Positions 4,886 to 51,690 of a stretch of DNA of 59,033 nt are shown here, in pieces. The stretch is from Raillietiella orientalis (Eukaryota). The notes under the pieces are model-generated. The model was not told the DNA's origin. It searched no databases and worked only from the letters and a program-made list of their open reading frames with translations. Position numbers and translations under genes: made by a program. Position 1 is the first letter of the stretch, and each line of letters starts with the position of its first letter. The stretch lies in the NCBI GenBank assembly GCA_036172245.1, contig JAYWIR010000103.1, positions 124,001 to 183,033 on the forward strand. The letters are read 5' to 3'.

Positions 4886-6129
4886 ATCAGGCATTGCTGC
4901 CTAATCCTCCACCCACACCACGCACAAGCACCAACGGAAATGGAACTCAGGAGCAACGAAAAGACACGTCCGCTCGACGCTCCGGAATCTCCAGGACTGG
5001 GACCTTTTTAAGGAATCGGTCCGCGAGTTCTGTGAGCAGTTCCCCCTGGATCGCCTGCCCCCCGGATTCGGCGAGGGTGCTCGCAACCATCGGGCCTATT
5101 TACAGGCTCGTAGGTACGAGAGAACCCCTAATGTCCGTCGCCTGGCCGAGTACCGCGCCGGGGCCGAACGCCAAGCCTGGCAATCCGGGTCGGCCAGCTT
5201 GCTGGACGACCAGGGCCGGGAATGTTCGTCCCCGGCGTCGGTACGGCATCTCGTGCGGAGTTTCTATTCCTCCCTTTACGCCAGGGAGCCCCCGGATCGA
5301 AACGCCTCTCGGCGCTTGCTTCCGGATGGCGCCCCGGCAATAAGGGAGGAGGAGATGGAAAGCCTCGACGAGCCTTTTACCACCGGCGAAATTCTCGCCG
5401 GTATCAAAAGGCTCAAGAAACGTAAAGCTCCAGGGGAAGACGGCTTGCCCGCGGAGTTCTTTCAGAGCTTCGCGGAAGAGCTGGCACCCCTGCTGCTTAA
5501 GTTGATCAGGCTGATCCGAGACGAAGGCGATGTTCCCGCCTCGTTTCGGTCAGCCAGAGTGAGGCTCCTTCCGAAAGGGGGAGACCTCAGGAATTTAAAG
5601 AACTGGCGTCCGATCACAATCGTGAATACGGACGCCAAGTTGATAGCAGGGCTATGGGCTTCGCGTCTGGGGCAGGTGGCAGAATCCGTAATTAGCCCGG
5701 AGCAGACTTATGCTGTTCCCGGTCGAAGTATGGATGCCAACCTCTTCTTCGCAAGCACATGGGTGCACCTGCAGAGAAGAGAAAAGAAAGGGATAGGGAA
5801 AGTCGGCAACCCAACATTGGGTCCGTTAGCCGGGCTGGGAAGGGACCCCCGAGCGGAGAAAGGGGCCCTAGCGCTCGCAGTCGATCTCCACAAGGCGTTG
5901 GATTTTCACCCGGATTTCGCCGGGGCGTTTATTGTAAAATAAACTTTTACAAAGACGTGCGGTGGCTGGACCATTGCTCCAGCCACGCACGAAGAAACAC
6001 AGAGCCTGCCGGGTCACCGGTTTGCAGACCGGTACGGTCCACCACGGCAGCAGGGGGAAGGGGGAAAAACAAAAAACAAAACAAAAAAGAAAAGAAAAGT
6101 TGGGAGGGTAAGGGAAGGGATCACAGTTG

Positions 6130-9100
6130 CTAGTGGGGCCGTTGCATCCTTTGTAGGATGGCGGCAAGCTCCTTCTGTATTTCTGGATCCAGGTGGGGCC
6201 ATCGGGACGCCCTCCTCAAAAACTGGGAGGCTGGCTGGATGGCACCCTGGTCGCGTAGTCCTCCCGTAGCCTTGCTCAAAGCGGTGACGTTCCCGCGTAG
6301 GCAGCACAAAGCTGCTAACGAGGCCGCTGGCCGACGGGCTTCGGGAACGAAGATGGCTTTCAGGGCGTCCCTGGGGTCGCAGCAGGGGATTCCGATGGCC
6401 GCGGCAAAGCGAAACCAAAGGGGCCGAAGGGCAACACAATCCACTAGCAGGTGGGGGAGGGACTCCCGTTCCCCACACCTGACGCAATTGGGGTCCACCG
6501 CTCCCCAGGTCCAGTGGTGTCGGCGGGCGTTGCAGGGGAGTCCCCAGTGCTGCAACAGGAGAGCCGACTCCTGCCATTTTAAGGGGAGGGCGGAAGTGTT
6601 CATGAGCACCGGGGGCCAATTCAGATGTTCAATGGGAACATCGAGCAGCGCGCCCCAGCGCAGAAGTCCATTGGGAGGCGTACTCGGGGTCGCAGCGTCT
6701 GTTAACTGGCCCGTCTTCCACTCTCCTATCTTCTCCTTTCCGGAGATTGTTACTGTAACCACCCACTTCGCCGCAACATCGCTGTCCAGATCTTCCATCA
6801 GGGAGGGCAGCGCAGCAGCGAGGGGGGTTCTTCCTGCCCACGCTCTCTTCTTTGGATCCTCCAGGATCTCGCGGAGCGTGCAACTTCTGTAACCCCCAAA
6901 CAGGAACCTTCGTTCCTGTTGGGAGCGTTGCATGCCGAACCGTCCCCACGTTCGAACGGTTTCCTGCAACCAGGCACTACCGTTAAACGGGCGACAGGTG
7001 AGCAATCCTGGGTTTTTCCGATACAGCGCAGCCACCCTCCGTAGCTGGAGTCCGCATCGGTTGACGCGGCGACGGAGTGCAAGAAACGACGTCAGTCCCG
7101 TCTTACCGGTGGCTTGCTGGAGAAGGAAACGTGCAGGGACGCACCAACAGGTGCACCACAACTCTGGAACGAGTGCCGACAAGCGGAACTGGAGCTGAAG
7201 CTCCAGCCGCTCCAGCGTCAGGAGGCCCAGACCACCATCCCGACGAGGAGCGCACAAGTCCTTTAAGCGGACTCGGGCCCTCCCGTTGCCCCAAAGGGCG
7301 ATACGGAGGAGGTCCTTTGTCCGCTTTTTAATCCTCTCTGTGGGGAAGCAAACTAAAAGCAGGGGGCGGAGGAGAGGAGCCGCGAACGTGTTCCAAACCG
7401 CGGCCCGTTCAGGCAGGAAAAACCTGCCGCCTCGGAACGGGCCGATCGCCGTCTCTACTTTTTGAAGGCAGCCGGACCACGCTTCCGCAGGGGAGTAGTC
7501 CCCCAACGGCACACGAAGGTACTTCAAATACCTCACCGTGGGGATCCCCAAACGGACCCAGTCCTGCTGCCATGTCCACGCCGCACAAAGTTGCATCACG
7601 GACGACTTCGTCCTGTTCACCGTAAGTCCGGTTCCCCGATGCAGCAGGTCGAAGAACTCCTCGACCGCCGTAGCCGGGGTGGACATAGGGAGCAGCAGCA
7701 GAAGGTCGTCCGCGTATGCTGAAACGGCCGGCGTACCGGCACAATCGTGCGGCAGGTGCGCCAGAGTTCCCCTGTACGCTCTCAGTACCAACTCAAAGTA
7801 GGTACTGAAGAGCAAGGGGCTCAGGCTGTCTCCCTGCCGGATCCCACGCCGCACCGGCACGCCGTGCACCGTCTGCCCGCTGAAAGCAACATTGATGAGC
7901 GCGTCGCGCCAGCAGGAGCGCAGATAGGTCACTAATGAGGCCGGGAAGCCCAAGCGTTCCAAAAGCTCCAGAAGGAGATTCTGGTCGACGCAATCGAATG
8001 CTTTCTGCAAGTCGATTGCGACCGTAAGGGCTCCCTCCCCCACCCGACCATCCAACCCCTTGCCGGCGCACGCACCGGAATTCCGGCTGCGCACCAAGCT
8101 CCTTTCATGTTGGAGCTCTAGCCAGGTGGAAGCGTGGAACAGGTTCGCCTCCATGCTTCGCCCGGGAACAGCATATGTCTGTTCCGGGCTGATGAAGATG
8201 TTGGCAACCCGTCCCAGACGCTCTGCCCAAACCTTGGCCACCAACTTGGCGTCCGCATTCACTATTGTGATGGGACGCCAGTTGTTCATGCTCCTCAGAT
8301 CTCCTCCCTTAGGGAGGAGCCGCACCTTTGCCGAACCAAACGAGGCGGGAACGTAACCTGTTTCTCGTATCAGCAAGGTGAATTGCTGTACCAGGGGGGT
8401 AAGCTCAGCCGCGAAAGTTTGAAAAAACTCCGCGGGCAGGCCGTCCTCCCCTGGAGTTTTTCGCCTCTTGAGCCTTCCGATGGCCGAGAGGATCTCGTCC
8501 ATCGTGAAAGGCTCGTCGAGGGTCTTGCTCTGCTCCTCCCCGATCGCTGGAGTGCCTTCCGGAAGCAGGAGTCGTGAGACGTTCCTCTCCGGAGGTGCCC
8601 TGGCATACAGGGAGGAGTAGTAACTCCGCAGCAGGCCGCGCATTTGGGCAGGTGCCGAGTGCTCCTGGCCCTGATCGTCCAGTAAGCTGGCCGATCCGGA
8701 CTGCCAGGCTTGCCTCAAGGCTCCCGCTTTGTATTCCGCCAGCCTGCGGATGTCGGGGGTCCTGGCGTAACGACAGGCCTGCAGGTAGGCTCGTTCGTTA
8801 CGGACCCCGGTCCCAAAACCCGTAGGTAGGCGGTGCAGAGGAAACTGGTCGCAGAACTCCTGGACCGACCGCTTGAAGCGGTCCCAATCCTGGAGTGTCC
8901 GCAGCCTGAAGCTCCGTATGAACTTGCGGAGATGTTCCGCCGCGTCCGGGAGCTTCAGCCAGTCCCCTGGGAGACGCCACGCTGACGAGGGGGGACCCCT
9001 GTCGCGCGGATGGATCTCGAGGACTAGCGGGCGATGGTCGGACAGCTCGCACGGTAACCTGCCGCGGCTGCCCACGCGAGGGCACAGGTGCTCGTCAAGA

Positions 9101-9699
9101 AACACGTGGTCAATGCTGTCTTCCATCCCCGGTGCACTGGCCAACAGATTACAGGTGTGCACCGCCATGCACACCTCGTTGACCAGGTCACGCTCGGGAT
9201 TCTGCTCATCTGGTTTCAGGCGAACGTTGAAATCGCCTGCAACCAGATGGGCATTCCACACGCCTGCTTCGGTCAGCCAGTCTCGCCGGAGGGCAAGGAA
9301 AAACTCTTTCCTCGCCCTCCTGTTCATCAGGTCCTTGCCGCTCGGTGCGTACACGTTCGTGACGATCAGATCGATCGAGTCGGACCACCTGAGAGTCAGC
9401 TGGCCGACACGACCGTGATCGTCGAACCGCACGCCCCGAGCCGCGGCCTCGACGGCTGGCCAAAGCAGGTAGGCGACACCGCAACTTTTCGCTCTCCCAC
9501 ACCTGTACCATAGCCGCCCTCCGGAGATCCGTTCGATCTCTTGCGCTTGTTCTGCAGAGATCACGTGGATCTCCTGCAGCAGCGCAAGGTCGTAGGACTC
9601 CAGAAGGGCAAATATGTCTCGTCTCCTGCCGGCGTCTGTCATGCCGTTCACGTTCCAAACGGCGATGCGCAGACGACGGCAGGAGGAGATTCCCGGCAT
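6130..9699 (-). CDS. Open ORF2 of B1, 1189 aa: APE endonuclease, reverse transcriptase, C-terminal zinc finger
   Basis: EN motifs WNVNG, LQE, NVYAP, GDFN, IDHVF, SDH. RT motifs PGEDG, NWRPI, DLQKAFD, RQGDSLSP, YADD. Finger CVRCGERESLPHLLVDC. YLG is changed to YLR. Confidence 0.96.
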   Translation of the reverse strand: MPGISSCRRLRIAVWNVNGMTDAGRRRDIFALLESYDLALLQEIHVISAEQAQEIERISGGRLWYRCGRAKSCGVAYLLWPAVEAAARGVRFDDHGRVGQLTLRWSDSIDLIVTNVYAPSGKDLMNRRARKEFFLALRRDWLTEAGVWNAHLVAGDFNVRLKPDEQNPERDLVNEVCMAVHTCNLLASAPGMEDSIDHVFLDEHLCPRVGSRGRLPCELSDHRPLVLEIHPRDRGPPSSAWRLPGDWLKLPDAAEHLRKFIRSFRLRTLQDWDRFKRSVQEFCDQFPLHRLPTGFGTGVRNERAYLQACRYARTPDIRRLAEYKAGALRQAWQSGSASLLDDQGQEHSAPAQMRGLLRSYYSSLYARAPPERNVSRLLLPEGTPAIGEEQSKTLDEPFTMDEILSAIGRLKRRKTPGEDGLPAEFFQTFAAELTPLVQQFTLLIRETGYVPASFGSAKVRLLPKGGDLRSMNNWRPITIVNADAKLVAKVWAERLGRVANIFISPEQTYAVPGRSMEANLFHASTWLELQHERSLVRSRNSGACAGKGLDGRVGEGALTVAIDLQKAFDCVDQNLLLELLERLGFPASLVTYLRSCWRDALINVAFSGQTVHGVPVRRGIRQGDSLSPLLFSTYFELVLRAYRGTLAHLPHDCAGTPAVSAYADDLLLLLPMSTPATAVEEFFDLLHRGTGLTVNRTKSSVMQLCAAWTWQQDWVRLGIPTVRYLKYLRVPLGDYSPAEAWSGCLQKVETAIGPFRGGRFFLPERAAVWNTFAAPLLRPLLLVCFPTERIKKRTKDLLRIALWGNGRARVRLKDLCAPRRDGGLGLLTLERLELQLQFRLSALVPELWCTCWCVPARFLLQQATGKTGLTSFLALRRRVNRCGLQLRRVAALYRKNPGLLTCRPFNGSAWLQETVRTWGRFGMQRSQQERRFLFGGYRSCTLREILEDPKKRAWAGRTPLAAALPSLMEDLDSDVAAKWVVTVTISGKEKIGEWKTGQLTDAATPSTPPNGLLRWGALLDVPIEHLNWPPVLMNTSALPLKWQESALLLQHWGLPCNARRHHWTWGAVDPNCVRCGERESLPHLLVDCVALRPLWFRFAAAIGIPCCDPRDALKAIFVPEARRPAASLAALCCLRGNVTALSKATGGLRDQGAIQPASQFLRRASRWPHLDPEIQKELAAILQRMQRPH

Positions 9700-9713
9700 T
9701 ACTGCTGGGAAGA

Positions 9714-11375
9714 TTAAGGTGTGGGGGAGCCCTCCTCTTGCGAGGCGGGCGGGATGTCCATGGGGGTTTCGGCCTTCTCAGGCACCTGAGGCACCTGTTC
9801 GGCCTCCACCCCCTCCATCCCCTCCGTGTCCGTGCGTGGGAGTCTCTCGGGCGACGGGTCCCGAGAGTTTCCCACGCTCATGGCACCCTCGCTTGCGGAA
9901 GCCATCTCTTCCCCTTCGACGGGGGAGACGAGCTTCCTTGGCTTTGTGGACTTACGTCCAGCCTTCTTGCGCGGTGCCGTAGAAACGGAGGCTGCGGTTC
10001 CGGCCTCCACCTCGGGGTCGGAAGTGGGGAACATCTGAGGGGAGGCCGGACGCCTTACGGCCTTCTTGCCAGCCTTGGAGGGTTCTGGCTGCAAAGAGGC
10101 TGCCAGCTCCTCCGCGGCTCGCGCGAAGGCTACGTCATCGATGGTGGTGTCGATAACGGACGCCGCCGCCGGTTCGCTCCCCTCGCTGTTGTCTGTGTCA
10201 ACAGAGGGGAGTTCGTCGGTAGCGGCGAGTTCGTTCCGGCAGCGTTCGGCAACATCGAGAACGCGTTCGACAACGACGCTGCACTCTTTAATTATGGCGC
10301 GACCCTGCTCTTTCTTCTTCTATTGGTAGGCGATTTTCTTTTCCATCCTCCTCTCCTTCTTTGATTTTTTGGCTGTTGCCACTTGCCACTCAGTCTCCTG
10401 GCCGGCTCCCTCAACTTTTTCCGCGTTGGTCGCCGGGGTCACGGGTGCGGCCTGGGTCTTGGGCGCGGGTGGCACAGCCTTCGCGGCAGCTTTCGCCTCC
10501 AGTCTTTTCTGCAGAAGCCGGGCGCGTTTTTTAAGGTTTCTCTTGGAAACCACCCGCACTGCTGCTTTTGGGCACACCTCCCTCGTGTGGCCCATTGTGC
10601 CGCATACTTGGCACTGCACATTGGGACACCTCTTTTTGAGGTGGCCCGACGTATTGCAGAAGCCACAGTATTTCGGCTTCCCCCCATACCAGAGGTCGAC
10701 GGTTTCGCCTTCGACCACCAGTTTGTGGGGAAGAGTGCAGCCCTCCCGAACGGTCACGCGCGCAGCAGTGAGGCCGTGTTGCAGCCCCGTGTAGTCCTCG
10801 AAAGGACTAACTTTCGTCCACTGCGCGTGGACCGTTCCAAACTGTTCCAAAGCGGCGCGAACCTGTTCTTTGCGCATTCGCGCGGTCACGCCTAACAGGT
10901 GGACCACCATGCTGCGGTCCGCCGTATTGGGGAGAAGCCTGCGCGTCCCCATCACAACGGTGGTTTTAAGCAGTCGTTGGGCCAGCTCTGCATGTTTGCA
11001 GATGACCTCAACGTACTGACCCCCGCTGCGGAAGGTCATAGCGCTGAGCTCCTCCTCTTTCACATCGAGAGCGCGCATGCCCTTCGAGAAGGCGCGCGCG
11101 CTCTCTAAAGAATATAAATTGCCTACCTTGTAGAACAATGAGGGGTTGTACCCCTCCTCTACATAGGCCGACAATTCCGCCGCGGCTGCAGGCGATGGCG
11201 CCGACACACCGGCGCTTCACGCCCGCGCTGCAGCAGGGACCGATCCTGTGGGGGCGCATGCCCCCACCTCCATCTCCTCCGGGGGCGACGTTGCTGCCGC
11301 CCCCTGGCTCTCCATCGCCTCTGGGGGCGGCGTTGCCGCTGCCCCCTGGCCATTCCTGGTGCTCGCGTCAGGCAT
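9714..11375 (-). pseudogene. ORF1 of B1 (CCHC knuckles) with two in-frame nonsense codons
   Basis: Collinear with the intact B2 ORF1. TGG>TGA at ~11217 and a TAG at ~10320. Knuckles CGFCNTSGHLKKRC and CQVCGTMGHTREVC. Confidence 0.9.
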
Positions 11376-13449
11376 TGCTGCCTGATCGACCACCGAACCA
11401 CACGACGCTTCCACTGGGAGAGACTTCCTGGCACGAGGAGCACCGAGAAAACACGTCCACCCTAGAGCGCACAAGGCGTTCGACTGTGTAGCCCAGAAAC
11501 TTCTCTTGGAGCTCCTGGGTCGCATGAGCTTTCCACCCTCCCTGATCAACTACCTGCGCTCCTGCTGGCGCCATGCCATAATTTCCGTCTTTTTCAGCAG
11601 TCAGAAGGTGCATGGCGTACCGGTGCGGCGGGGCATCAGGCAGGGAGATAGCCTGAGTCCCCTGCTCTTCAGCACCTACTTTGAGTTGGTGCAGACTTCT
11701 TCGAGCTGCTCAGCCGTGGGACCGGACTGCAGGTCAACAGGGCGAAGTCGTCGGTGGTGCCAGTAGGTGCGGCGTGGGCAGGGCAGCAGGACTGGGTCCG
11801 TCTGGGGATCCCCACGGCGAGGTGCTTCAAGTACCTTGGTGTGCCGTTGGGGGACTACTCCCCTGCGGAAGCGTGGTCCAGCTGCCTCCAAAAAATCGAG
11901 ACGGCGATCGGCCCGTTCCTGGAAGGCAAGTTTCACTTGCCGGAACGGGCCGCGGTTTGGAACGCCTTCGCGGCCCCCATCCTCCGCCCCTTGCTTTTTG
12001 TTTGCTTCGCCCCCGTGGAATCAAAAAAGCGGACTAAGGACCTTCTCCGCATAGCTCTTTGGGGCAAGGGGAGGCCCCGAGTCCCACTGAAGGACTTGTG
12101 CGCTCCGCGTCGGGACGGCGGTCTTGGCCTCCTGACGCTGGAGCGCGTGGAGAAGCAGCTGCGGTGGCGAACCCTCGCCATCGCAGCGAAGATGTGGAGC
12201 ACCCCTTGGTGCACTCCGGCCCGCCTCCTGGCCAGCCGTGTGTCCCGGTGCGATGGACTCGCTTCTTTTCTTCTGAGCCGTGGCCGGAAGATGCGAAGAT
12301 GCGGCCTACTGCTCGGGCGCATGGCAACATTGGCCAAGGAGAACAGCTGGATGGTTTGCTGCCCCGCCAACTCCCCCGCCTGGCTGGAGGAGAATATTGG
12401 AACGTGGGCAGTAGTTAACCAGAGAAGCCACGAGACGTGGAATCGTCTCCGATGCAGCCCCTACGCCCGCTGCACGCTGCGGAATCTCCTGGAGAGTCCA
12501 GCAAGATGCACGTGGGCAGAGACGACCTGCCTAGCTACGGCGCTGCACTTCCTAAGGAGGGCACTTCACCGCACTCGGACGCCAAGGTGGCAAGTCTCCT
12601 GCTGCATCGAGGGACGCGAGAAGTTGATCAGCGGCTGGATAACAGGAGAACTGGCCGACGCCACGACCCCGAGGGTCCAGCCGCGAGGATTATTAAGATG
12701 GGGCGAGCTGCTCGCCATCCCCAGGGATGAGCTGAAGTGGCCCCCGGTAATAAAGGAATCCAGGATCCTGCCCCTCAAGTGGCAAGATTCGGCGTTGGTT
12801 TTGTTGCACTGGGGTCTACCCTGCAACGCGCGCCGCTTCTACTGGACGAGGGGAGCTGTGGATCCTGCGTGTGCCATGTGGGGGGAGCGGGAGTCGCTTC
12901 CCCACCTTATTGTGGATTGTGCTGCCCTCCGACCCCTTTGGGAACGGTTCGGGACGACCCTCGGGCTCCCTACGGGCAGCAACCCCAGAGACGTTCTTCG
13001 GCCCCTCCTCGTGAAGGACGCACTGCAGCCAGCCGCAGCCATCGCAGCCTTGTGCTGCGTCTGTGGCTTCGTGGGGGCATGGAGCGACGCCAACAACGAA
13101 GGAGTGGGTCCACAGGCGAGGGATGTCATCCCGTATGCCAAACGCTTCTTGCGAAGAGCTGCCGGATGGCGCCAACTGGGGAATATGCAGACTGACCTCG
13201 AGGGCTTCGTTCGACGGATGGGCCCTCCCCACAGCGACCAGTGATCCCTTCCCTGCCCTCCAGCTTCTTTTTGTTTGTTTCTTTTTATTTTACTTTTTGT
13301 CTTATCCCCATCCCCCTTCGCTGTCGGGGAGTGCCACGCCGGGCTGCGTCCCGGTGTCCCGACAGGTCCTGTGTTTACGGCCGTGGTGGGGCCTTGTACC
13401 ACGCATGGAAAGTTTATTAATAAACGCCCCGGGCGTACCCGGGTGATAA

Positions 13450-16183
13450 CGCCGATTCCCCGGAACAGACGTTGCACAGGGAACTGTTTGCAGAACTCCC
13501 GGACCGAGTCCTTAAATTGGTCCAAATCCGCGAGACTCTGGAGGCTGACGCCTCGCAGGAATTCGCGAAGATGTTCTTTCGCTCCTGACAGGCGCGTCCA
13601 GTCCCCTGGCATACGCCAATCCCTGGATGGCGGTCCCTTGTTGCGCGGGCGCATCTCGAAAACTAACCGGGAATGGTCCGACAGCGTCGATCCAAGTGTC
13701 CCTCGTTTTCCGACCCGTGTGCACAGGTCTTCGTCGAGGAAGACGTGGTCCACGCTGCTGACCATCCCGCTTATTTCTGTCAACAAGTTGCGCGCGCGCA
13801 TGGCGGCGCACAACTCGTTGATCGCGTTACCCTGTGCTCCGGGCTGATCTGAGAGCAGACCGACGTTGAAATCCCCTGCTATCAGATGCGCCTTTCGCAC
13901 GTCCGCGTCCACCAGCCATTCGCGCTTCAAGGTTTCCAGTAACGCGTTGCGCTGCTGGTATCCCTGTTTACCGCTAGGAGCGTACACATTGGTGACGATG
14001 AGGTCGATCGAATCGGACCATCTGAGAATCAGTTGGCCGATCCGTCCGTCGTCCCCAAAGCGCACTCACTTCACGGCCGCGTTAATGGCTGGCTTTAGGA
14101 AGAACGCGACCCCACAAGTGTTGCGGGCGCCGCATCGCCAGTACAACCGCCCTCCCGCAATCGTTTCGATCTCCTGGGCGTCTTTTGCGGTGATCACGTG
14201 GATCTCCTGCAAAAGTACCAGGTCGAAATCTCGCAAGGTGGCGGCTGTATCTCGTCTGTTTCCGTCGTCGCGCAGCCCGTTAACATTCCAACTGGCCGCG
14301 CGGATCCGACGGCGACAGGCGAGTCCAGGTGTTATTCCTGGGAACCTGGCGGTGGAGCTCCCGCCACCTTTTGGGGCGGGTCGCTGGACGGGGTTGGCGT
14401 CTTGCCCACCAACTCCCCATCCTTCTTTCGTGCCGACGTCTCCGGCTGCCCGTGCGAAGGGGGTGTTGTTCGTACCTGTTGGCCCACATCCATTGGTGCG
14501 GGTGGTTCAGGTTCGGCGGTTTCAGAGAGCATTGCTGACCCCTGGTTACCCTCCTCCATTGGAGTCGCCTCCTCGTCGGCTTCCGCACGTGGGTGATGCC
14601 CGACTTGGGCTCCCACGCTGCCATCCACTGGTTCTTCCACCATTGCATCCCCCTCGCGCGGAGGCGGAATGCACCTTCGGGGTTTCTGGGATTTTCGCCC
14701 CGCTTTCCTTGGTGGTGCTTCCGCAGAGGAGGATGCACTTCCGGCCTCCCGGTCCGACTCACCTGCGGGGGCCACTTTAGCCGCTGCCGGCCTACGCAAC
14801 CCCTTTCGCGAAGGGTTCTCGCGTTCGGCAAGCGTTGCCGCAAGCTCCTCGGCGGCCTTCTCGAAGGCTGCCTCCTTGGTTTCGGCGATTTTGTCGTCCG
14901 GCTGACCCTCTTCGCAAACGGGGGGTGGGTTTTCGCGCGCATTCTTCGCGGCAGGAAGATCGATCGAAGCCGTATTGCCTCCGGTGGTGTCGGCGGGAAC
15001 GTCAATGCGCTACAGCGTAACCGTGCATTCTCGGAGAGTTTCTACGCGCGACACGGATTGAGCTTTTGTTCCGGCCGCCGCCTTCTCTCCTTTCTTCGGG
15101 ACATGCTTGTCCTTTTTTTCTTTTTTGGCTTTGACTAGCTGCCAGCCCTGTTCACCCTCTGCGGTTTCGGGAAGGTTTTTCTCCGATGCCGCGCTTGGAG
15201 CTTGGGTTATTGGCACCTTTTCTCGGCCAGTTTCACGGTTTTCTAATTTTTCTTTTCCCGCGCGTTTCGCTTGCGCCTTTTTGGCGGCCGAGGAAATTGG
15301 GGTGGGGCGTTTAGGGCACACGCGACGGACGTGTCCCTTCTCCCCGCACAAGTAGCATACGATGTTCGGGCACCTCTTACGGATGTGTCCGACCGCATCG
15401 CAGTAGCCGCAATACCGTGGCTTGCCAGCATACCAGAGGTCTACTGGTTCTCCCGCGACCTCAAGTTTGTGGGGTAGCTTCGCTTCGTTTTTTGGGGTTA
15501 CGCGTGCCGCAGGAGGCCCCGAAGTGGCGTCCGTAGCCCTCAAAGATTGTGGGCTTCGGCCACAGCGCGTGTACGTCCCCGTACTTACTTAATTCTGCTT
15601 TTACGGCAGTGCGCGTCATGCGCTTGGATATTCCTGTCAAGTGGACCACTACCGAGTGGTCCATTGACACCGGGAAGATCTTACGGCCGTCCATGATCAG
15701 CGGGGTATTTATAAGGCGATCGGCTAGGCTGATGCTCTTGCACACCAGCTCAACCCGCTGCGCCCCGCTGAGCACGCACAGACCGTCCAGATCTTCCTCA
15801 CGGACATTAGCATTTTGTAGCGCTCTGCTGAAAGAGCGCGCTGTGTTTCCTTCAAACAAAGGGCCTACCTTGTATACAAGCGATGGCTTGTATTCAGAGG
15901 ACCGATAGGCGGCTTCCTCGGCCATGGCCTCCGCACTGGGGGCGGCGACCATTTCACTCCAAGTCTTCGCCGGCTGCGAAGACGTTCCAGGGACTATTGC
16001 CCCCATAGATGTAGGTCCTGTGGTAGGACTTGCCTCCCCCACAACCACATCCATCGCGGTGTCCTCTGGCACGGCTGCCATCGGACACCGACGACCCACA
16101 CTTAACACCTGACTACACTAAAAAAACTCCGGTTGCTTCCCAGACAGGCGTTGGCGGAGCGACCAAAAGACACGTCCACCCAC
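13450..16183 (-). mobile_element. Non-LTR retrotransposon C, 5' half (frameshifted ORF1 16081-14332; EN domain 14332-13450); inserted antisense into F
   Basis: 5' end gtgggtGGACGTGTCTTTTGG. Knuckles CGYCDAVGHIRKRC and CYLCGEKGHVRRVC. EN motifs WNVNG, NVYAP, GDFN, SDH. Cut by the 3' end of D at RLFRGIG. Confidence 0.9.
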
Positions 16184-19165
16184 ACCGGCTTTCTGCGAAG
16201 GCGTGAGGAACGACAGGAACTATCTCCAGGCCCCTGGTTTCTCCAACAAGCCCGACGTCCGTCGCCTGGCGGGAATCAAGGCTGGAGCGGAGAGGCAGGC
16301 CTGGCAATCTGGGCCTGCCTGCTTGCTGAATGAAGGCCAGGAGCACTCATCTCCAGCGCAGGTTTGCCGCATGCTGCGGGATTTTTATTCCTCGCTTTAC
16401 GCGATGAGACCACCAGAGCGCACCTCTGCGCAGCGCCCGCTGCCAGAGGGTGCTCCCGCGTTAAAGGAGGAAGAAATAAACATGTTCCTCCAAGAATTCA
16501 CGATGGCGGAGATAATCTCCGCCATCAGAAAAATGAAAAAACACAAAGCACCAGGGGAAGACGGCCTGCCAGCTGAATTCTACCAACACTTTGTGCCAGA
16601 GCTGGCTCCCCTGGTTGTAAAATTATGTATGCTGATTCGTGAACGTGGGGATGTCCCCAACTCGTTCCGGTCAGCTAGAGTACGTCTCCTTCCTAAGGGA
16701 GGAGACTTGCGCAACGTTGGCAACTGGCGTCCCATCACTGTAGTGAATGCGGACGCAAAGTTGCTCGCCAAACTCTGGGCTGAGCGTCTGGGACGGGTAG
16801 CGGCTTCCGTGGTCAGTCCGGAACAGACATACGCTGTTCCCGGACGAACCATGGAGGCCAACATGTTCCTCGCCAGCACATTCTGGCAGTTCAAACAACG
16901 CGAGGCGCAGCTACGTCGGGAAACTCCAGAACTCTCTATTGACAGGGGGGAGGGAAGCTGGGAAGAAGATACGGCGCCTAAAGCCCTTGCGGTCGCAGTC
17001 GATTTGCGTAAAGCTTTCGACTGCGTCTACCAGGAGCTCCTTCTGGAGCTCCTGGAACGCTTGGGATTTCCGGCCGTCTTCCTGGCCTACCTGCGCTCCT
17101 GCTGGCGCTTCGCGTTCATTAATATTGATTTCAGCGGCCCGCACGTGTTCGGCGTGCCGGTGCGGCGAGGCATCCGGCAGGGTGACAGCCTCAGCCCCCT
17201 GCTCTTCAGCATCTACTTTGAGTTGGTGCTGAGAGCATACAGGGAGACTTTGGCAACTCTGTTGAGCTCGTGTCTTGGCACGCCTGCCGTGTCGGCCTAT
17301 GCCGACGATCTTCTGCTCCTGCTTCCCGGGTCCACCCCGGCATCGGCGCTCGAGGATTTCTTCGAGTTGCTATACCGTGGGACAGGCCTCCAGGTAAACC
17401 GGACGAAGTCGTCGTTGCTTTTCACCGACTCGACGAGGGCCGGACGGTCGGACTGGATCCGCTTGGGGATCCCCACGGGCAGGTACATCAAGTACCTTGG
17501 CGTTCCGTTGGGGGACTTCTGCTCTGCAGAAGCCTGGTCCGACCGTCTACAAAAGGTGGAGCTGGCGATCGGCCCGTTCCGGGACGGGAAGTTTCACTTA
17601 CAGGAACGGGCAACGGTATGGAACGCTTTCGCAGCCCACCTCCTTCGCCCCCTACTTTTTGTGTGCCCTTCCCCTTATCAAATTAGGACACGGACTAGAG
17701 GCCTTATACGGAAAGCCCTCTGGGGCAACCGGAGGCCCCGCGTCCGGCTCAAAGACTTGTGCGCTCCACGCAGGGACGGTGGACTTGGTCTCCTGACGTT
17801 GGAGCGCATGGAGCGACAGCTCCAATTCAGAAAACTTGCCCTTGTGGCAAAGTTCTGGACAGCACCCTGGTGTGCACCCGCAAGACTCCTTGCTCACAGG
17901 GCAACCGGCTGCATCGGATTGACTTAAATCTTGGTAGCCAACGAACGCAGCCTGAACCATTGTGGTTATCAGCTGCGGGATTTGGTTGCCCTGCTGAGAA
18001 ACAACCCTTGGATCTCCTGCATCCCAGCGGACTGGACTACCTGGCTTCAGGAGTCCGTTTCCGCATGGGCGAAGATCAATGGCACTAGCGATGAGGACTT
18101 GTCCTGCCTCCGCAGAGGGAGGCACGCTGGTCAGCCACTCCAGGAGATCGTTTCCAACCCACGGAAACTTCTGTGGGCTTCCTTCACCCCCCTTGCCCAT
18201 TGCTGCCCTCCCTCGGGGAAGTTCGGGACAGCCACCAAGAGGCATCATGGGAAGTGTCCTGCCTCATCGGAGGCAGGAAAAAATCAATGAAGGCGTGGAC
18301 GCCGAGGGAACTAGCGGACGCTAGTACCCCGAGTTTCCCGCCGAACGGACTTTTACGCTGGGGCGCGCTGCTCGGTATAACTCCGGAGGAGGTGAAATTG
18401 CCCCCAGCGTCATGGAAGAACGGCACCTTTCCCCTGCAGTGGCAGGAAACGGCGTTGCTTCTGCTCCACTGGGGACTTTTAAGCAGAGCACGCCTGTCTC
18501 GCTGGACATCGGGGAATGTGGATGCTAGTTGTGCAGAGTGCGGGGAAAGGGAGACCTTCCTTCACTTGATTCTGGAGTGTGTTGCCCTCCGCCAAATGTG
18601 GGACAGAATCTCGTCGATCCTCAACATTCCGGAGGGTGACCCGAAAAACTTATTCAGACGCCTCCTGACGCGAGATGGCTTGCCAGCCTACGGTAGCGTA
18701 ATAGTGTTCTGCGGCATACGCGGTACCCTGGAGAAGTGGACCGCGTCTAGGAGAGGAAGGACCAGCCGGAATGCCATCCACTGGGCAGCGATCTCCTTGG
18801 AGAAAGCGTGCCGTTGGCGCCGACTTCGAAAACATTTGCCGGCACGTGTTCGCATCCGTGACCGGATGCAAAGGCCTGCTCACGGCGCACCATGATCCCC
18901 TCCCTCGCTCCCCCTTCCCAAAAACATTGCCCTCCAGATGTTTTTCTTTTTTGGTTTTGTTTTCTTTTTATTTTTCCCGCCCCGGCGCCAGTGAAGGACC
19001 TTATCGGTCTGCGGGTCGGTAAGGACAAGTGCTACTGAAGTTCTCTACTGAACTTCTGACGTCCTAAAAAAAAAAAGAAAAACTTTTAAGAACAAAGACT
19101 TTATAAAAAAATTTTGTAAGCTCAAAAGTTTAGTAATAAAAGCCCCGGCTTACCCGGGTGAAAAA
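16184..19165 (+). mobile_element. Non-LTR retrotransposon F, RT to 3' end (ORF2 to 18895 with a stop at 17927 and a frameshift near 18230)
   Basis: 574-aa ORF with PGEDG, DLRKAFD, RQGDSLSP, YADD and YLG. Finger CAECGERETFLHLILEC. 3' end AATAAAAGCCCCGGCTTACCCGGGTGAAAAA. Confidence 0.92.
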
Positions 19166-28926: not shown

Positions 28927-29343
28927 TTTCAACCTCCGCCTGCTGTCAGGTGATGCCCACGCACAGGAGCGGACGGCCAACGAATTGTGCGCTGCCATGC
29001 GCACGCGCAACTAGTTGGGTGATCTCCCGGGAATGGTCAACAGCATCGACCACGTTTTTCTGCATGCTGCCGTGTCCCCAAGGGTCCTAAACGGGAGAGT
29101 TGCGTCGACGCTGTCGGAGCATTCCCGGCTGATATTCGAGGATTGCCCGAGCGACAAAGGACCCCCTTCCAGGGCGTATGTCTGCCTGGGGACTGGACGC
29201 GACCCTCAGGTACGAAAGAACACCTTCGCCAATTCCTGAGAGGCGTCACCCTCCAGAATCTCGCTGACTGGGAGCTTTTTAAGGCCTCGGTCCGGGAGTT
29301 TTGCGAGGAGTTCCCCTTGCACCTCCGCCCCCCTGATTCGGGG

Positions 29344-30028
29344 TTTCCACCCGGGTATGACCGGGGCGTTTATTGAAAAAATAAAACTCTACAAGACGTG
29401 GTACGAGGCTCCACTAACGGCCTAACAACACCGGACCCGCCGGGACGCAGCCCGCCGTGACTCCCCTCGGCAGTGGAGGGGGATGTGGGCGAAAACAAAA
29501 AATAAAATAAAAACAAAGAAAAAACAAAAAGAGTTTGGAGGGGAAGGGATCACATTCCACTGGGAGGAGGGTCCAACCTTCGCAGGATTCCCTCGAGGTC
29601 CATCAGCATTGAACCCAGCTGGGGCCATCCTTTAGCTCTCCGCATGAAGCAGACCGCATAAGGGATGACATCCCTCTCGATAGCGTCCAATCCTTCGTCG
29701 CATGCATCGCTCCAGGCCGCCACGATGCCTCCGATGCAGCACAGTGCTGCCACGGCTGCGGCTGGCTGCAGGGCGTTACGCACGAAGAGATGACGGAAAA
29801 CGTCTCTGGGTTGGCTGTCCACCTGGAGCCCGAGGATCGTCCCGAACCGTTCCCATAGGGTTCGGAGGGCAGCACAGTCAACAAGTAGGTGGAGGAGCGA
29901 TTCCCGCTCCCCACACCTTGCACACTCAGGCCTTACACTTCCCGCGTCCAGTGGAAGCGGCGCGCGTTGCAGAGTAAACCCCAGTGCAACAGTAGCAGCG
30001 CCGACTCTTGCCACTTCAGGGGGAGAAG
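29344..30028 (-). mobile_element. 5'-truncated retrotransposon E (D/K-like 3' end) with a 12-bp TSD, antisense in G
   Basis: TSD CCTGATTCGGGG at 29332-29343 and 30029-30040. Finger CARCGERESLLHLLVDC. Terminal hairpin present. Confidence 0.93.
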
Positions 30029-32220: not shown

Positions 32221-32221
32221 C

Positions 32222-32940: not shown

Positions 32941-32959
32941 CATCTGCCAAACCATCGTC

Positions 32960-34870: not shown

Positions 34871-34939
34871 ATGACTACAAGCCTGTACTCAGGTATACGA
34901 TTTCACCTCACGACAGAACATCTTTGGCAGCCAATTCGG

Positions 34940-35470
34940 GAGTTTCAAAGAATCAGTTGAGCTCCCTCATACTCATAAGCAGGTCGGCCACATAAGCGAA
35001 ATGCTGTTCTGTTGTCTATGCCCACCCTATCGGCTAAACTCGAAAACTTTTTCGAGCTCATCCATCGAGGTACAGGCGTTAATAGGGGCAAGAGTGTGGT
35101 CGTCCCAGTGGGTGCGTCGTAAGAGCGGCAGAACGACTGGATCTGTCGAAGTATCCCCACAGGCCGCTACTTCAATTACTCTAGATTTTGGGGGCGAGAT
35201 TTCTGTGTAGCGGAAGTGTGATCACTGTCTTCAAAAGGCTGAAATGTCTCCCGGTCCGTTCCTCGAAAGCAAGTTCTTGCCAGCGCGGGTCACCATCTGC
35301 AACAATTTTGCTGCTGCTCTCCTACGCCACTTGTTTTTTCTTCGCCCGCCCCCATACTCGGTGAAGATCCAAGTGCAGCGTCAATTAGGGAAAGCCCTGT
35401 GGGGCGCTGCAAAGTCCCGGATCCGCCTCAAGGACTTCCTGATGCCGCGTCCGGTGGCATCCTTATTGTA
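34940..35470 (+). pseudogene. Decayed H-like RT C-terminal fragment
   Basis: ENFFELIHRGTG..NRGKSVVVPVG...DWI and KALWGAAKSRIRLKDF. Confidence 0.8.
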
Positions 35471-41400: not shown

Positions 41401-41993
41401 TGGTCCTCTTCACCATCATACCAATACAACTCCTACTCAACAACACTTGATAAGGACAAAATTATTAGATGTTTAAAAGTGTTTTGCTAAAACGAGTCAT
41501 TTGATGTATAAAAGTGATGGAATTCAGTGCACCAAAACTATTGTTAGAAGAACAGTTCAAATTGGATATTCTTACGTAAGAATAATTCTTCACTACGGTA
41601 TATATTAAACTTCACCACATTTCTGGGAAACCATGCTATAGCTTAAACCAACTCTTGACCTGATCATGTCTGTGATCAAATGAACACATCATACACGAAT
41701 AATACATGAATAGCTGGGTATTCACATATTGATCATGCATTAAAATCAAAATATCTCCTTTCTACCTGATGAGTCCACAATATAGAAAGACTACAACTCA
41801 TCCCTGAACAAAAATTTATTTTCTCACTAGTAGTGAAGGGGCATTACAAATTATGAGCACATAGTTGCAAGAGAATTTTTTTCGTAGAAAGGAGATATTT
41901 TGGGGCACAAACAAATTAAAAGCACAAGAGAACTTGAAAAAATGCCAAAATTCTTACCTTTAAAAGATATTCTGCATATGTATTCTAATGCTT

Positions 41994-47990: not shown

Positions 47991-48749
47991 GCAGTCCATG
48001 AGAAGGATGTCTCTTTCTCCCCTCACCGGTAAAAAAGGGCATTCACACTTTCAAGTGTCCAGTGAGTGAGACACGCCTTGCACGGGAGATTCAACGGAAT
48101 GATAAACACATTTAATGTATTGATCTAAGAGAGTGGTTAATATTGAAAACAAGGACTTTGTAAATGTTTTGTGTGGCACAAGTCTTTGGTAGCTGGTTTT
48201 CAAAGCTTGCCAAAGGAGACAAAGATACAAATGTTTCTAAATTATCCTAGTTACCGTTCGTAATCACTTACAAAAATGGGAAGGATTCAAAGTAAAATTA
48301 AGAACTGGAGACCATGAACATTTTCCAGGTTTATACGATGTGCAATGTCATTTTACCCCTAAAAGTTGAATTCATTGGATCCTGAACAATATTTAGCTCT
48401 GAATGTAGCATTAATATTTAATATTGATTCTTGTCCTCACGTAAGCTGGGTCTTGGGTGATACAAAGAATTCCATCTGACAAATGTTTGAATAAGTCCAA
48501 CTTATGGGGAACCTTTGACATAATATGTATTTATGAGTTACTGATACTCTGAAAAATTCTAGAAGCTTATTCCTTAACAGTCACAGTTGTTGGGTTTGGT
48601 TATGTGATTCGAAATGTGAACTTCGATGTATTCTGAAAGTGCTTAGAATAACGCCATGAATAAAAGTATCTCCACCTCTTCCAAGGTGTGGACATAAATC
48701 AGTCAAATTAAATCAAAGCACGAGTTAAAAATTGTATCAAACTTCTAAA

Positions 48750-49620
48750 ATCAGTGATGAACATTCCCCATAAGATGGACGGCCGGAAGGTATTCCCTGT
48801 GACGTTGGACAATTCCTTGATTGTGCACCTCACAGGTTCACTCTTCGGATGGGACGCACCGCCGTCCACGAAGAGCGGAAGAGGCATGGTACCGTGCACG
48901 CGATGTGGACGAAACCCGATGTTTTCTGGAGCAACAACATATTTTTCAGCGGGATGGCTGCAGCGCGTGTCACAGTACACGAAAACGGTGAGCTTCCGCA
49001 CAAACCAGACTTCAGCAACGAAAACGATGACGTCTGGTACGTGAATAAGCCCAAGTACTGCGGGCATTGCGATGCCACCGAGCACCTTTAGCAGGGGTGC
49101 CTGCATGTCAAATGCCACCACTGAGGCGAAAAAGGCCACCTTAAAAAGATGTGCCCAAAACGCGCATCTCCGATGCCCCCTGCAGCGAAAAAAGCGCAGG
49201 CAAAACGGGCGGGAGAACTAGAAAGATAAAATGCAAAGAAGACTGGGCGAAAGCAGCAGCCGGTCCTTCAAGCTCCCAAGGAACTTCAGAGAAAGAAATC
49301 TCCGACTAAACGGGAGAGCAGAAGGAGGAATGGTGTAACACAAAAAAGTTAAGAATTCTTCGAAAGAAAAAACGCTTCCGAAAGAGGAGAAAACTGCGAC
49401 AGACGAACATAAAAAATAGAAGCCGCGCCTCGAAAAACTCGCAGAATGTCCGATTGCCTTTCAAACCGTGGAGACAAACGTTACCGCTACGAGGGGAGGA
49501 ATCATCCCTCTCGCTTCCGTCAAAGCTGCGGTCCCCGAAAACGAATCATCTGTTCAAACAGGGGGTGAGCCACTGGACGCGCTCGGCGAAATCGAGGACA
49601 TCGAATTCGAGCAGGCGACG
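48750..49620 (+). pseudogene. Decayed C-like ORF1 (element M), outermost host of the right-hand nest
   Basis: MDGRKVFPVTLDNSLIVHLTG; AARVTVHENGELPHK; WYVNKPKYCGHCDATEH; IEFEQAT at the junction. Confidence 0.85.
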
Positions 49621-51669
49621 TTGCCACACGGATACGCCGGGACGTTTATTCAAACTCTCCGCATCGTCACGAAAACATGTGGTACAAGGCTCTACTAACA
49701 GCAAATATTTAGCACGACCTGCCGGGACACCGGGACGCAAACGCGTGTGACTCTACTTTGCAGTAAAAGGAGTAAGGAGAAAACGCACAAAAAAATATAA
49801 CAAACAAAATAAAGAAAAAAAGTTTATAGGTTCGAGAAGAGATCACTGACCACTAAGAGGAGGGTCCATCCTTTGCAGGATGCCCTCGAGGTCTTTCTTT
49901 TTTCCACCCAGCTGGGGCCATCCGGTAGCTCTGTGAAGGTAGCGAACAGCATACGGGATGACGTCCCTCTCGTTGGCGTCTTCATCTTTGGCTTCACTCC
50001 AGGCCGTTACAATTCCACGGATGCAGCAAAGTGCTGCCAGGGCTGCGGCTGGCTGCAGGGCGTCTTGCACGAAAGGAAGGCGGTAAACGTCTCTGGGGTT
50101 GCCGCCAGCCGGTATCCCAAGGGTCGTCCCGAAACATTCCCAGAGGGGCCGGAGGGCAGGACTGTCCACTATCAGGTAAGAGAAGCGCTCTTCCTCCACG
50201 GACCTGGCACACCCAGGGATTACTCTTCTCCTCGTCCAGTGAAAGCAGAGGACGTTGCAAAGTAGATCACAATGCAACAACAGGAGCGCGGACTCTTGCC
50301 ACTTGTGGGGGACGATCCTGGAACCATTCAATAGCAGGGTAACTTCAGTCATCCATCGCGATGCCAAGCAGCTCGCCCCATCTACAAAGTCCACGCGGAA
50401 GGAAACTCGCGGTAGTGGCATCCGCAGTTCTTCCATAGTCCACAAGCTTATCTTCTTCTCCCTGCTCCGATCCGATAGGAGACTTGAAACTTTATCGCCA
50501 GCGTCTGACGGGAGCTATCCATAGGAAGGGAAGCTCCGGAGCTCAAGGAGTGGTCTCTGCCGAAGTGCGACTGGCAGAAAATGCTGGCAGTTCCAGTAAT
50601 TACCTCCATAGTAATTCAGATTCGCCCACGTGATAACGGATTCCTCCAGCCAGGCGGAAGAGTAGGCGCGCTGCAAACCATCCAGCCGTTGTATTTCAGC
50701 GTTTCCATGCTTCCAGAGAGAAGACCACATCTTCTCATCTTCCGGACGTGGCACAGAAGATAAGGCGAAACTCCCTGCGTCCTGGAAACACGGTTGTCCA
50801 GAAATCGGGCCAAAACGTACCATAGGGTGCTTCAAAACTTCGCTGAGATGGCCAAGGTGCGCCGTCGCAGTAGCATCTCCAAGCGCTCCAACGTCAGGAG
50901 GCCAAGACCTCTGTCCCGACGCGGAGAGCACAAGTCCTTCAGAGACACACTAGGCCACCCGCTGTCCCAGCGGGCGATGCAGAGTATGTCCTTAGTCCTC
51001 TTCTTCAACTGGCAAACAAAAGCAGGGAACCGAGAATAAAGGCCGCGAACGGGTTCTAAACCGAGTCCCGTTACGGAAGAAGGAATTTGCCTTCCAGGAA
51101 GGGGCCGATCTCCAGCTCTCCTTTTTCGAGACTACCTGACCAGGCTTCTGCGAGACAGAAGCCACCCAACGGGAGGCCCAGGTATTCCAGGTACCTGGAC
51201 GTGGAAATCACAAGCGGAACCAGTCAGACCGTCGGAAGCACGTCGCACCAACCACTACCACCAACGACTTCGCCTTGTTCACCCGCAGTCCTGTTCCACG
51301 GCTTAGCAGAACGAACATGTCCGCGACAGCGCATGCATGGGCAGACATGGTCAACATCAGCAGAAGATCGTCAGCGTAATCTGCTACGGCGGGCGCACCG
51401 GGGCACGAGCTCGGCAAGGCAGCCAAAGTCACCCTGTATGCTCTTAGCATCGACTCAAAGTAGGCGCTGAAGAGCAGGGGACTGAGGCTATCACCATACC
51501 GTATGGACCGCCGCTCCACCAGGCCGTACGTGGTTTGTCCGCTGAAGGAGACGGTAAATATTGCATGGCGCCAGCAGGAGCGCAGCTATGTGATAAAGAT
51601 GTGTGGGATGACCATGCCACCTAGGACCTCCAGCAGGAGATCGTCGTCCACGCAGTCGAACGCCTTGCG
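49621..51669 (-). mobile_element. Decayed retrotransposon K (D-like), from RT KAFDC to 3' end; antisense in M and host of B2
   Basis: RKAFDCVDDDLL, RYGDSLSP, YADD, ...LQRMDPPLSGQ. 3' end AATAAACGTCCCGGCGTATCCGTGTGGCAA. Confidence 0.9.
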
Positions 51670-51690
51670 TGCTCCAGGGTGGACGTGTTT
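51652..51690 (+). promoter_or_regulatory. Putative composite Inr + DPE core promoter of B2 (equivalents at A1 4998/4971, B1 11485/11458, C 16204/16177, A2 57859/57886)
   Basis: gcAgtc (A at 51654, in host K) and GGACGTG starting at 51681, which is +28, the canonical Inr-DPE spacing. Confidence 0.65.

Follow-up and report, generated by a model that had tools for sequence, protein, structure and literature searches.

Do LINEs that land within other LINEs recognize a defined target there, and can that target be the coding sequence of their own relatives? The question is raised by a stretch of 59,033 nucleotides of Raillietiella orientalis (contig JAYWIR010000103.1, positions 124,001 to 183,033; hereafter, the window), in which two elements of one family lie antisense at the same reverse transcriptase (RT) motif in two diverged host elements. 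Target-specific LINEs are known for rDNA, snRNA genes, tRNA genes, microsatellites, telomeres and one DNA transposon. A description of LINEs homing to ORF2 of related LINEs was not found in the literature searched, the scope of which excluded Repbase Reports and the original Zepp papers. On the evidence of this one 59-kb window, we consider it likely that the elements are target-specific L1/Tx1-like LINEs that are aimed at ORF2 of related LINEs, at discrete sites and in antisense orientation.

On their predicted APE and RT domains, the elements are APE-type L1-like non-LTR retrotransposons. In the Pfam comparison, ORF2 matches Exo_endo_phos over residues 40-248 (36.2 bits, cut-off 24.5) and RVT_1 over residues 489-734 (76 bits, cut-off 29.6); zf-RVT reaches 19.7 bits in ORF2 (cut-off 27.5) and zf-CCHC 15.1 bits (cut-off 20.8), and the ORF1 translation contains two CX2CX4HX4C strings. 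When scored against solved structures only, the nearest relative is human L1 ORF2p (E 5e-45, versus approximately 1e-12 for R2 proteins). Relatives of ORF2 reach 21-33% identity, and the best named ones are plant L1-like proteins (21-27%). All seven 3′ ends in the window carry a hairpin followed by TGAnAA-like bases without an A run, and the poly(A) tail typical of L1 proper is absent from each of the seven; the z-scores of the hairpins are weak (-0.2 to -2.1). The 5′ terminus region contains ..GGACGTGTYTTTC.., and a terminal AAC rule for the 3′ ends was dropped because the duplication flanking the insertion R shows that the C belongs to the target. The marks of target-primed reverse transcription are target duplications (11 bp for the insertion B1 and 12 bp for R) and the 5′ truncation of R (approximately 685 bp). 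The window had no match in Rfam, and database searches with a 584-aa frame at 41994-43748 were also without a match. We read the window as two nests, which would contain at least six diverged lineages of one L1-like non-LTR retrotransposon group. Their probable common plan is an ORF1 with two CCHC knuckles, an ORF2 with an APE endonuclease, an RT and a zinc-binding tail, and a conserved 3′ hairpin with a short A-rich end and no poly(A).

Host D is interrupted by B1, a full-length L1-like LINE of 5570 bp on the minus strand (5900..11469). The upstream part of D (plus strand, 4977..5899) extends from a site that we call alpha to a site gamma and ends with one copy of CACAAGGCGTT (5889-5899); the downstream part (plus strand, 11470..13449) starts with the other copy (11470-11480), and its 3′ end at 13449 abuts element E at a site beta. 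The two copies are exact and represent an 11-bp target duplication, one copy on each side of B1. The bare count of this motif is not significant (at least three matches in 16 of 100 shuffles); the evidence lies in its placement. The duplication covers the codons H-K-A-F of RT motif A, where KAFD aligns with ...SIDAEKAFD... of human L1 ORF2p, and the frame of D is intact (V-D-L-H-K-A-F-D-C-V) when B1 and one copy of the duplication are taken out in silico. Across B1, tblastn follows D over residues 284-595 and then 591-664, and an internal deletion lies in the downstream part at approximately 11691-11694. B1 itself has an ORF1 at approximately 9717-11396 with one in-frame stop, an open ORF2 of 1215 aa on the minus strand (6133-9777) with APE, RT and a weak zf-RVT match, and a 3′ end with a hairpin and without poly(A).

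The second insertion at gamma is B2 (plus strand, 51670..54888), which comprises the 5′-most 3.2 kb of an element of family B and has an open ORF1 (51740-53410). Its host K (minus strand, 49621..51669) extends from site gamma to its 3′ end, which sits antisense within U, a probable ORF1 remnant (48739-49620). In the sense direction K begins at 51669-51659 of the minus strand with CGCAAGGCGTT, a one-mismatch version of the sequence duplicated around B1, and the junction in host sense consists of the B2 5′ end followed by CGCAAGGCGTTCGAC. The alignment of B1 (sense 2-3232) with 51671-54888, at 92.3% identity, starts at the first bases of the elements; therefore, the junctions in D and K coincide to the nucleotide and share one orientation. 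The 3′ junction of B2 lies beyond the window, and a target duplication at gamma is seen for B1 only. The preliminary description had placed B1 in D between target duplications at the H-K-A-F codons and the 5′ junction of B2 at the same position in K. The exact duplication and the restored frame of D uphold the first placement; the second is confirmed at 51670, where the 5′ end of B2 meets K at the equivalent nucleotide, likewise in antisense, and the host peptides quoted there are correct on translation.

Sites alpha and beta are both located between the endonuclease and RT domains. At alpha, element A (minus strand, 1..4976), whose 3′ side is cut by the window start, abuts D with its full 5′ end at 4976 and is antisense to D. 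Element N of the same A/N family (plus strand, 57881..59033, present from its 5′ end up to where the window stops) lies antisense in element M, and its insertion point there matches that of A in D to the nucleotide. M is D-like (minus strand, 54889..57880, from site alpha to its 3′ end) and is itself antisense in B2, which it cuts at 54888. Both joints fall between ...GTCCGCTCG and ACGCTC..., and ACGCTC occurs in both hit copies and in none of the six unhit copies. Three events fall at beta, namely D in E, R in Q/S and E in F. Element E (minus strand, 13450..16188, from its 5′ end to site beta) hosts D and is itself antisense in element F (plus strand, 16189..19165, from site beta to its 3′ end). 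Host Q (plus strand, 28933..29343) ends with CCTGATTCGGGG at 29332-29343, the first copy of the 12-bp duplication that flanks R; R (minus strand, 29344..30028) is a 5′-truncated antisense insertion, and the second copy follows at 30029-30040. In the alignment, the interruptions of E and Q fall in a single column, and the downstream part of F starts 9 nt before it. Although D has ATTCGGCG at beta, as does the hit copy E, no insertion occupies D there. A, N and E resemble B2 in that their 3′ junctions lie beyond the window.

Within the window, 12 nesting events were counted, seven of which fall at alpha, beta and gamma. Five pairs coincide within 5 nt on the same strand, as against 0.065 expected (Poisson P approximately 9e-9). 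Nine of 11 nestings are antisense (two-sided binomial approximately 0.07, calculated by hand), the two sense arrangements being H..P in G/Q and F next to G, and the nests are four levels deep on both sides of the window. Gamma is hit in both copies that carry AAGGCGTTC (AAG GCG TTC) and in none of the four copies that do not (Fisher P approximately 0.07, by hand), and we write the target as AAGGCGTTCGAC and the contrasted variant as AAAGCATTCGAT. Gamma is thus supported, within the window, as a preferred target. The four unhit copies (A, B1, F and M) retain K-A-F-D with the codons AAA GCA/GCT/GCG TTC/TTT, and GGCGTT is absent from the B1 sense strand. As a sufficient target motif GGCGTT was rejected, because the window contains 48 copies and most of them are unoccupied. 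No motif is common to all sites: M entered B2 after ..CTGG, and alpha has no GGCGTT within the presumed duplication. The primer strand ends in G at seven of eight 3′ junctions (seven in the window and one in a contig).

These observations divide the earlier proposal that the RT catalytic motif of relatives is the target, a site that the victim could not easily mutate. The preferred site indeed lies in motif A, but insertions also recur at two or more other sites. The supposed immutability is not supported: the unhit copies retain the amino acids with synonymous changes, and synonymous escape is therefore available to the host. Moreover, two of the three recurrent sites are outside the catalytic motifs.

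We propose that integration proceeds by target-primed reverse transcription, with related copies preferred and with few host ORF2 positions entered, in antisense orientation. The insertions of B1 in D and B2 in K are gamma events at the K-A-F codons of RT motif A (AAGGCGTT), and those of A in D and N in M are two events at alpha. The host sense strand would be nicked just 3′ of the duplicated stretch, after ..GGCG(TT) at gamma and after ..TTCGGSG at beta; the 3′-OH at the nick would prime on the A-rich RNA end, and a second nick 9-12 bp upstream would give rise to the target duplication. Because the primer would be the 3′-OH of the host sense strand on the A-rich RNA end, the antisense orientation would be fixed. 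As the most likely basis of site choice we favor recognition of the sequence by the ORF2 protein that each element encodes, as in other target-specific APE LINEs, with lineages differing in preference, and we give this source of specificity slightly less than an even chance.

Alternatively, the site may be specified by the flank. The host flank of a read-through transcript would anneal to the homologous nicked site, each lineage would inherit its site from its source copy, and endonuclease specificity would not be needed. Such homing would account for sites that differ by family, for the constant antisense orientation and for the choice of conserved ORF2 stretches, and it would suit elements that have no poly(A) and end directly at host sequence. 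According to the available part of PMC4494074, co-transcripts of the target aid the precise junctions of R1 and R2, and target co-transcription is said to strengthen R2-type and R1-type targeting. However, D in E has a 3′ flank unlike that of R in Q, and the hosts are 25-30% apart, such that only short stretches could pair. We consider guidance by the flank possible but rather unlikely as the sole explanation. The probability that remains for site choice belongs to protein recognition and flank guidance together, or to another cause.

A looser form of targeting is improbable in our view. LINE islands might be entered for chromatin or replication reasons with a loose preference for nicking after G, and the recurrent sites would then be merely the best nick sites in a small target space. 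The prevalence of G at the end of the primer strand (seven of eight 3′ junctions) agrees with this account, as does the lack of a long motif common to alpha, beta, gamma and the site of M in B2; Zepp and ZeppL also form nests for which the available parts of the sources describe no site rule (PMC3446292, PMC8226300, PMC9940879). However, each element offers hundreds of G-ending positions, over which a loose preference would scatter the insertions, whereas the observed recurrence follows family, with B twice at gamma and A/N twice at alpha (chance approximately 9e-9). Furthermore, hit and unhit copies are split by one or two synonymous bases.

Twin priming, by which each head-to-head junction would be the inversion of a single insertion and not a nesting, is a very improbable general explanation. 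E corresponds to positions 1 to approximately 2660 in inverted orientation and lies directly before F, which corresponds to approximately 2648 to the end, and this layout is the one expected from twin priming, by which the E-F junction may have arisen, although the overlap between the two elements is mismatched at four of nine positions. The arms of the B2-K, N-M and A-D junctions come from different lineages (N is 96% and M 76% identical to A), A overlaps the range of D, and B1 and R are each a complete insertion flanked by a duplication.

The divergence of inserts and hosts bears on whether the two gamma events are independent. The K2P distance is 0.079 between B1 and B2 (bootstrap 0.070-0.090) and 0.385 between D and K (bootstrap 0.353-0.425), and the bootstrap ranges of insert and host do not overlap; similarly, A and N are 0.041 apart, compared with 0.21-0.29 for their hosts D and M. 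In the first 210 nt past the duplication, D and K are 74% identical, which is not above more distant stretches, and this flat similarity near the junction leaves no room for a conversion tract. B1 thus entered D independently of the entry of B2 into K, and the inserts are far younger than the hosts. The preliminary description had favored this view over segmental duplication and had named equal divergence of flank and insert as the sign of an ancestral duplication; the two distances are unequal. One ancestral host-plus-B composite that was segmentally duplicated, or a transfer of B between hosts by gene conversion, would explain the identical junction nucleotide and orientation in nests that are repeat-rich and prone to rearrangement, but it is made extremely improbable by the gap between host and insert distances, by the absence of a rise in similarity near the junction and by the differing neighbors, since A at alpha in D has no counterpart in K. 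Between B1 and B2, dN/dS amounts to 0.36 for ORF1 and to 0.53 for residues 260-513 of ORF2, which indicates that part of the divergence accrued in active lineages; the value of 1.13 in ORF2 residues 1-263 rests on few synonymous changes.

According to the available parts of PMC4640811 and PMC4494074, the Tx1 and R1 clades include target-specific APE LINEs with transposons among their targets. Like the Tx1-clade LINEs described there (such as Tx1L of Xenopus, inserted in the DNA transposon Tx1D, and Keno, inserted in U2 snRNA genes), the present elements are L1-related, carry an APE and occupy a defined site of a multicopy target in a fixed orientation. In that clade a transposon can be the target, whereas here the target would be the ORF2 coding sequence of a related LINE, and several lineages, several sites and recursive nesting with alternating orientation set the window apart; this comparison concerns targeting and not phylogeny. 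The elements also resemble Zepp and ZeppL of Chlorella, Coccomyxa and Chlamydomonas, which are GC-rich L1-type LINEs with copies nested in one another (PMC3446292, PMC8226300, PMC9940879, in the parts available). Unlike the present elements, no same-nucleotide or antisense rule is stated for Zepp or ZeppL in those parts. Zepp and L1-1_CR end in (A)n (note to Table 3 of PMC3747384, available in part), whereas the present elements do not, and they are flanked by AT-rich DNA that includes a CpG-poor block, a setting unlike that in Zepp-bearing green algae. As with R1 and R2 in 28S rDNA, for which the available part of PMC4494074 describes target-primed reverse transcription, lineages coexist by means of distinct fixed sites in one multicopy target. 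However, the target of R1 and R2 is a host gene and not another retrotransposon, R2 has a restriction-like endonuclease, and the match of ORF2 here to R2 proteins is much weaker than its match to L1 ORF2p.

If confirmed genome-wide, a fixed target in the coding sequence of relatives would constitute a new kind of safe haven, provide a concrete mechanism for the growth of LINE nests and islands, and offer a natural case of competition among transposon lineages, which could be followed through the hit and escape alleles at synonymous sites. These APE-type enzymes, which apparently tell apart targets that differ by one or two bases, would be suited to the study of how LINE endonucleases read DNA. 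All of these prospects are drawn from one window. A bolder reading, which we regard as doubtful, is LINE-on-LINE hyperparasitism: lineages would each home to a fixed short ORF2 sequence of their relatives, including RT motif A, and thereby disable them, and synonymous variation of their own copy would confer self-immunity (AAA GCA TTC in B1 and another alpha sequence in A). If this were true, an arms race would be expected at synonymous sites, and islands of alternating orientation could supply double-stranded RNA to silencing pathways.

Contigs of a public run, X1, were compared with window positions 1-20000, and readings were taken from six of 103 loose ends. One contig matches D as far as 5899 and continues with six unmatched letters, which are too few to read. 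The joints found in this comparison reflect only the homology of A and B1. A loose end at 4977 presents the empty alpha site of a D-like copy, in which ...GAGAGGCGTC is followed directly by ACG.... At 9536, another loose end reveals a further antisense 3′ end, the tenth antisense case.

The two copies of the B family, B1 and B2, are nested in two different LINE hosts, D and K, respectively. B1 (5900-11469, minus strand) is flanked on both sides by exact copies of CACAAGGCGTT, and the insertion site, here called gamma, interrupts ..V-D-L-H-K-A-F / D-C-V-A-Q-K-L-L-L-E.. in the peptide of host D. B2 starts at 51670 on the plus strand, and host K adjoins it on the left on the minus strand, reading CGCAAGGCGTTCGACTGC.. 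at the junction, which encodes R-K-A-F-D-C-V-D-D-D-L-L-L-E. The alignment of B1 and B2 starts at the first base of each; therefore, both junctions fall between the same two nucleotides in the same antisense geometry. The proposal of the preliminary description that both copies entered antisense at one host position is thus confirmed by 5′ junctions that are identical to the nucleotide, with an exact duplication for B1. The KAFD of the hosts aligns with ..SIDAEKAFD.. in human L1 ORF2p, and we take this stretch to be RT motif A and the Asp of ..ID.. to be a catalytic residue. The 3′ junction and duplication of B2 are out of view because B2 breaks off at 54888, where another LINE, M, has inserted with its 3′ end at the junction.

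The same description favored independent insertions rather than one duplication, and the divergence values support it: K2P is 0.079 between the inserts (3219 aligned nt, bootstrap 0.070-0.090) versus 0.385 between the hosts past the duplication (1896 aligned nt, bootstrap 0.353-0.425). Moreover, the first 210 aligned nt of D and K (K2P 0.32) are no closer than the remainder, so a conversion tract beside the insert is absent. Twin priming is ruled out for the junction of B2 and K, as K is 69% identical to B1 over the common range and B2 is 92% identical. The dN/dS between B1 and B2 is 0.36 for ORF1 and 0.53 for ORF2 residues 260-513, which indicates that part of the divergence arose under selection in active lineages and fits an origin of B1 and B2 from two different source copies. 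For the endonuclease portion of ORF2 (residues 1-263; 6133-9777 vs 53350-54138), the value of 1.13 includes only about 9.5 synonymous changes and could reflect noise, with relaxed or diversifying change of the targeting domain as another candidate reading.

Within this one window, recurrent nesting at the same position extends past this pair to two further sites, alpha and beta. At alpha, elements A (1-4976, minus strand) and N (57881-59033, plus strand), which belong to one family, have full 5′ ends in hosts D and M, respectively, and share the junction ..GTCCGCTCG/ACGCTC... A and N are 96% identical (K2P 0.041), versus a K2P of 0.21-0.29 for D and M. The sequence ..CCTGAGAGGCGTC/ACG.. in a contig of the public run X1 is the empty alpha site of a D-like copy. 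At beta, the 3′ end of D adjoins E (junction 13449/13450), the 5′ end of E adjoins F (16188/16189), and the 5′-truncated R (29344-30028), in host Q/S, is bordered by CCTGATTCGGGG, a duplication of 12 bp. An alignment of ten host sequences places the cuts in E and Q at a single column, with the downstream part of F beginning 9 nt earlier, an offset expected from a 9-nt duplication; the junction of E and F could instead be a twin-priming inversion. Among 12 nesting events counted, five coincident pairs (≤5 nt apart, same strand) were seen versus 0.065 expected (Poisson P ~9e-9).

Occupied and unoccupied copies differ at these sites. At gamma, the occupied D and K read AAG GCG TTC GAC, and the unoccupied copies read AAA GCA TTC GAT (B1), AAA GCA TTC GAC (A), AAA GCT TTC GAC (F), and AAA GCG TTT GAC (M), with identical amino acids encoded in all six. 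A synonymous change therefore suffices to alter the motif, and the suggestion that the victim cannot easily mutate this site is not supported. ACGCTC lies directly past the alpha junction in the occupied D and M and in none of six unoccupied copies (B1, B2, A, E, Q, and T). GGCGTT is absent from the B1 sense strand. Small as the numbers are, these sequence contrasts fit recognition of approximately 8-12 specific bases, and they suggest that the target of a lineage is missing from its own copies. GGCGTT alone is ruled out as the signal, as the window holds 48 copies, mostly empty. No single motif covers all sites among the junctions within the window; M entered B2 at ..GTTGCTGG/. Host D reads ATTCGGCG at beta, the same as the occupied copy E, yet D is intact there.

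Antisense nestings account for nine of 11 in the window, which is a small count: B1 in D, B2 in K, A in D, N in M, D in E, E in F, R in Q/S, M in B2, and K in U. Consequently, the strand alternates over four levels in both nests (F, E, D, then A and B1 on the left; U, K, B2, M, N on the right). A tenth antisense case corresponds to 9536 (B1 sense position 1934, in the endonuclease region): in an X1 contig, a B-like copy is fused there to the 3′ end of another element (..CCGGGTGAGAA). The two sense arrangements are F head-to-tail with G and a 7.7-kb block, H to P, between host parts G (ending at 21235) and Q (starting at 28933). This block (21236-28932) comprises three pieces, all sense to the host: H/T1, a deleted element with a full 5′ end (ending at ~25694, ..GGGTGAAAAATTTCAA); approximately 1.7 kb of non-LINE DNA; and P (27425-28932), a 5′-truncated related copy with the same tail as H/T1. 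It could stem from a single insertion that brought along a 3′ transduced flank, or from two events. At 24534, T1 lacks ORF2 residues ~443-706, and the gap takes out the gamma site and the site of M in B2. Relative to B1, host D is missing approximately 127 nt of RT at 11691-11694 (B1 sense 3683 to 3811). In host S, the LINE match ends abruptly at 30585-30600 (..CGTCCGATAA/ATATGG..), approximately 27 nt short of the point at which M entered B2, and AT-rich DNA follows. A 3′-truncated LINE is not a product of TPRT; the left nest therefore ends at a deletion or rearrangement.

P0001, the ORF2 product of B1, exceeds the Pfam cut-offs for Exo_endo_phos and RVT_1, with a weak zf-RVT match, and among solved structures it is closest to human L1 ORF2p (E 5e-45), with R2 proteins far behind. 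ORF1 in B2 is 557 aa long with two visible CCHC-like strings. All seven 3′ ends in the window carry ..AATAAACGCCCCGG-loop-CCGGGTG.. and then a few A-rich bases, with poly(A) absent; a 3′ hairpin is predicted in all six folded ends, with weak z-scores. Every visible 5′ end in the window shares ..GGACGTGTYTTTC...

Insertions are either full length or 5′-truncated, with duplications of 11 bp and 12 bp, and several junctions are visible on one side only. In every case, the upstream part of the host sense strand connects through its 3′ end to the 3′ end of the element, and this host strand terminates in G at seven of eight junctions (window and X1 contig). We propose that the host sense strand would be nicked at the 3′ end of this upstream part, the host 3′-OH would prime cDNA on the A-rich end of the RNA (whose terminal AA could pair with the target TT at gamma), and the second strand would be cut 9-12 nt upstream of the nick. 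Our first choice is that the element's own ORF2 protein would recognize the site, by analogy with Tx1-clade and R1-clade APE elements as portrayed in parts of PMC4640811 and PMC4494074. A serious alternative is that the read-through flank of the transcript guides insertion, which would account for both the retention of the source-copy site within each lineage and the use of conserved ORF2 stretches. Another idea, in which the nick falls on the sense strand displaced in a host copy that is transcribed or bears an R-loop, would also yield antisense insertions but by itself leaves single-nucleotide recurrence unexplained.

Recognition by the ORF2 protein would have precedents: according to the sections consulted, target-specific APE LINEs are already known, including Tx1L, which targets another transposon (PMC4494074, PMC4640811), and their targets comprise rRNA, spliced-leader, tRNA, and snRNA genes, transposons, microsatellites, and telomeres (PMC4640811). 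Zepp and ZeppL form nests, as in the window (PMC3446292, PMC8226300, PMC9940879); however, the portions of these accounts that we used give no site or orientation rule, unlike the recurrent sites here. Our literature search, with most subscription journals and Repbase Reports outside its scope, found no description of LINEs homing to fixed ORF2 positions of related LINEs.

Approximately 40 of the 59 kb of the window consist of related LINE fragments on both strands (tblastn with P0001, blastn with B1), located at 1-30.6 kb and 48.7-59 kb and separated by an AT-rich stretch (GC 0.35-0.45). Within this stretch, an RT fragment that is old and AT-shifted (35006-35450, plus strand; 33-45% identity to B1 residues 694-845) indicates that LINEs of the same group were present locally well before the current nests. 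The stretch also contains a CpG-poor block (41000-46000; observed/expected 0.23 versus 0.8-1.2 everywhere else in the window, LINEs included) with an ORF of 584 aa (41994-43748, minus strand), for which no homologues were detected. This block resembles a methylated gene body within surroundings that are otherwise unmethylated, and the CpG pattern hints at an invertebrate-type genome. At 32410-33110 (plus strand), two overlapping frames with a P-loop-like ..GNSGKTT.. and a ..PHVIIFAN.. string have weak AAA and STAND matches (E 0.03-0.07) and may represent the decayed NTPase or helicase gene of a different mobile element.
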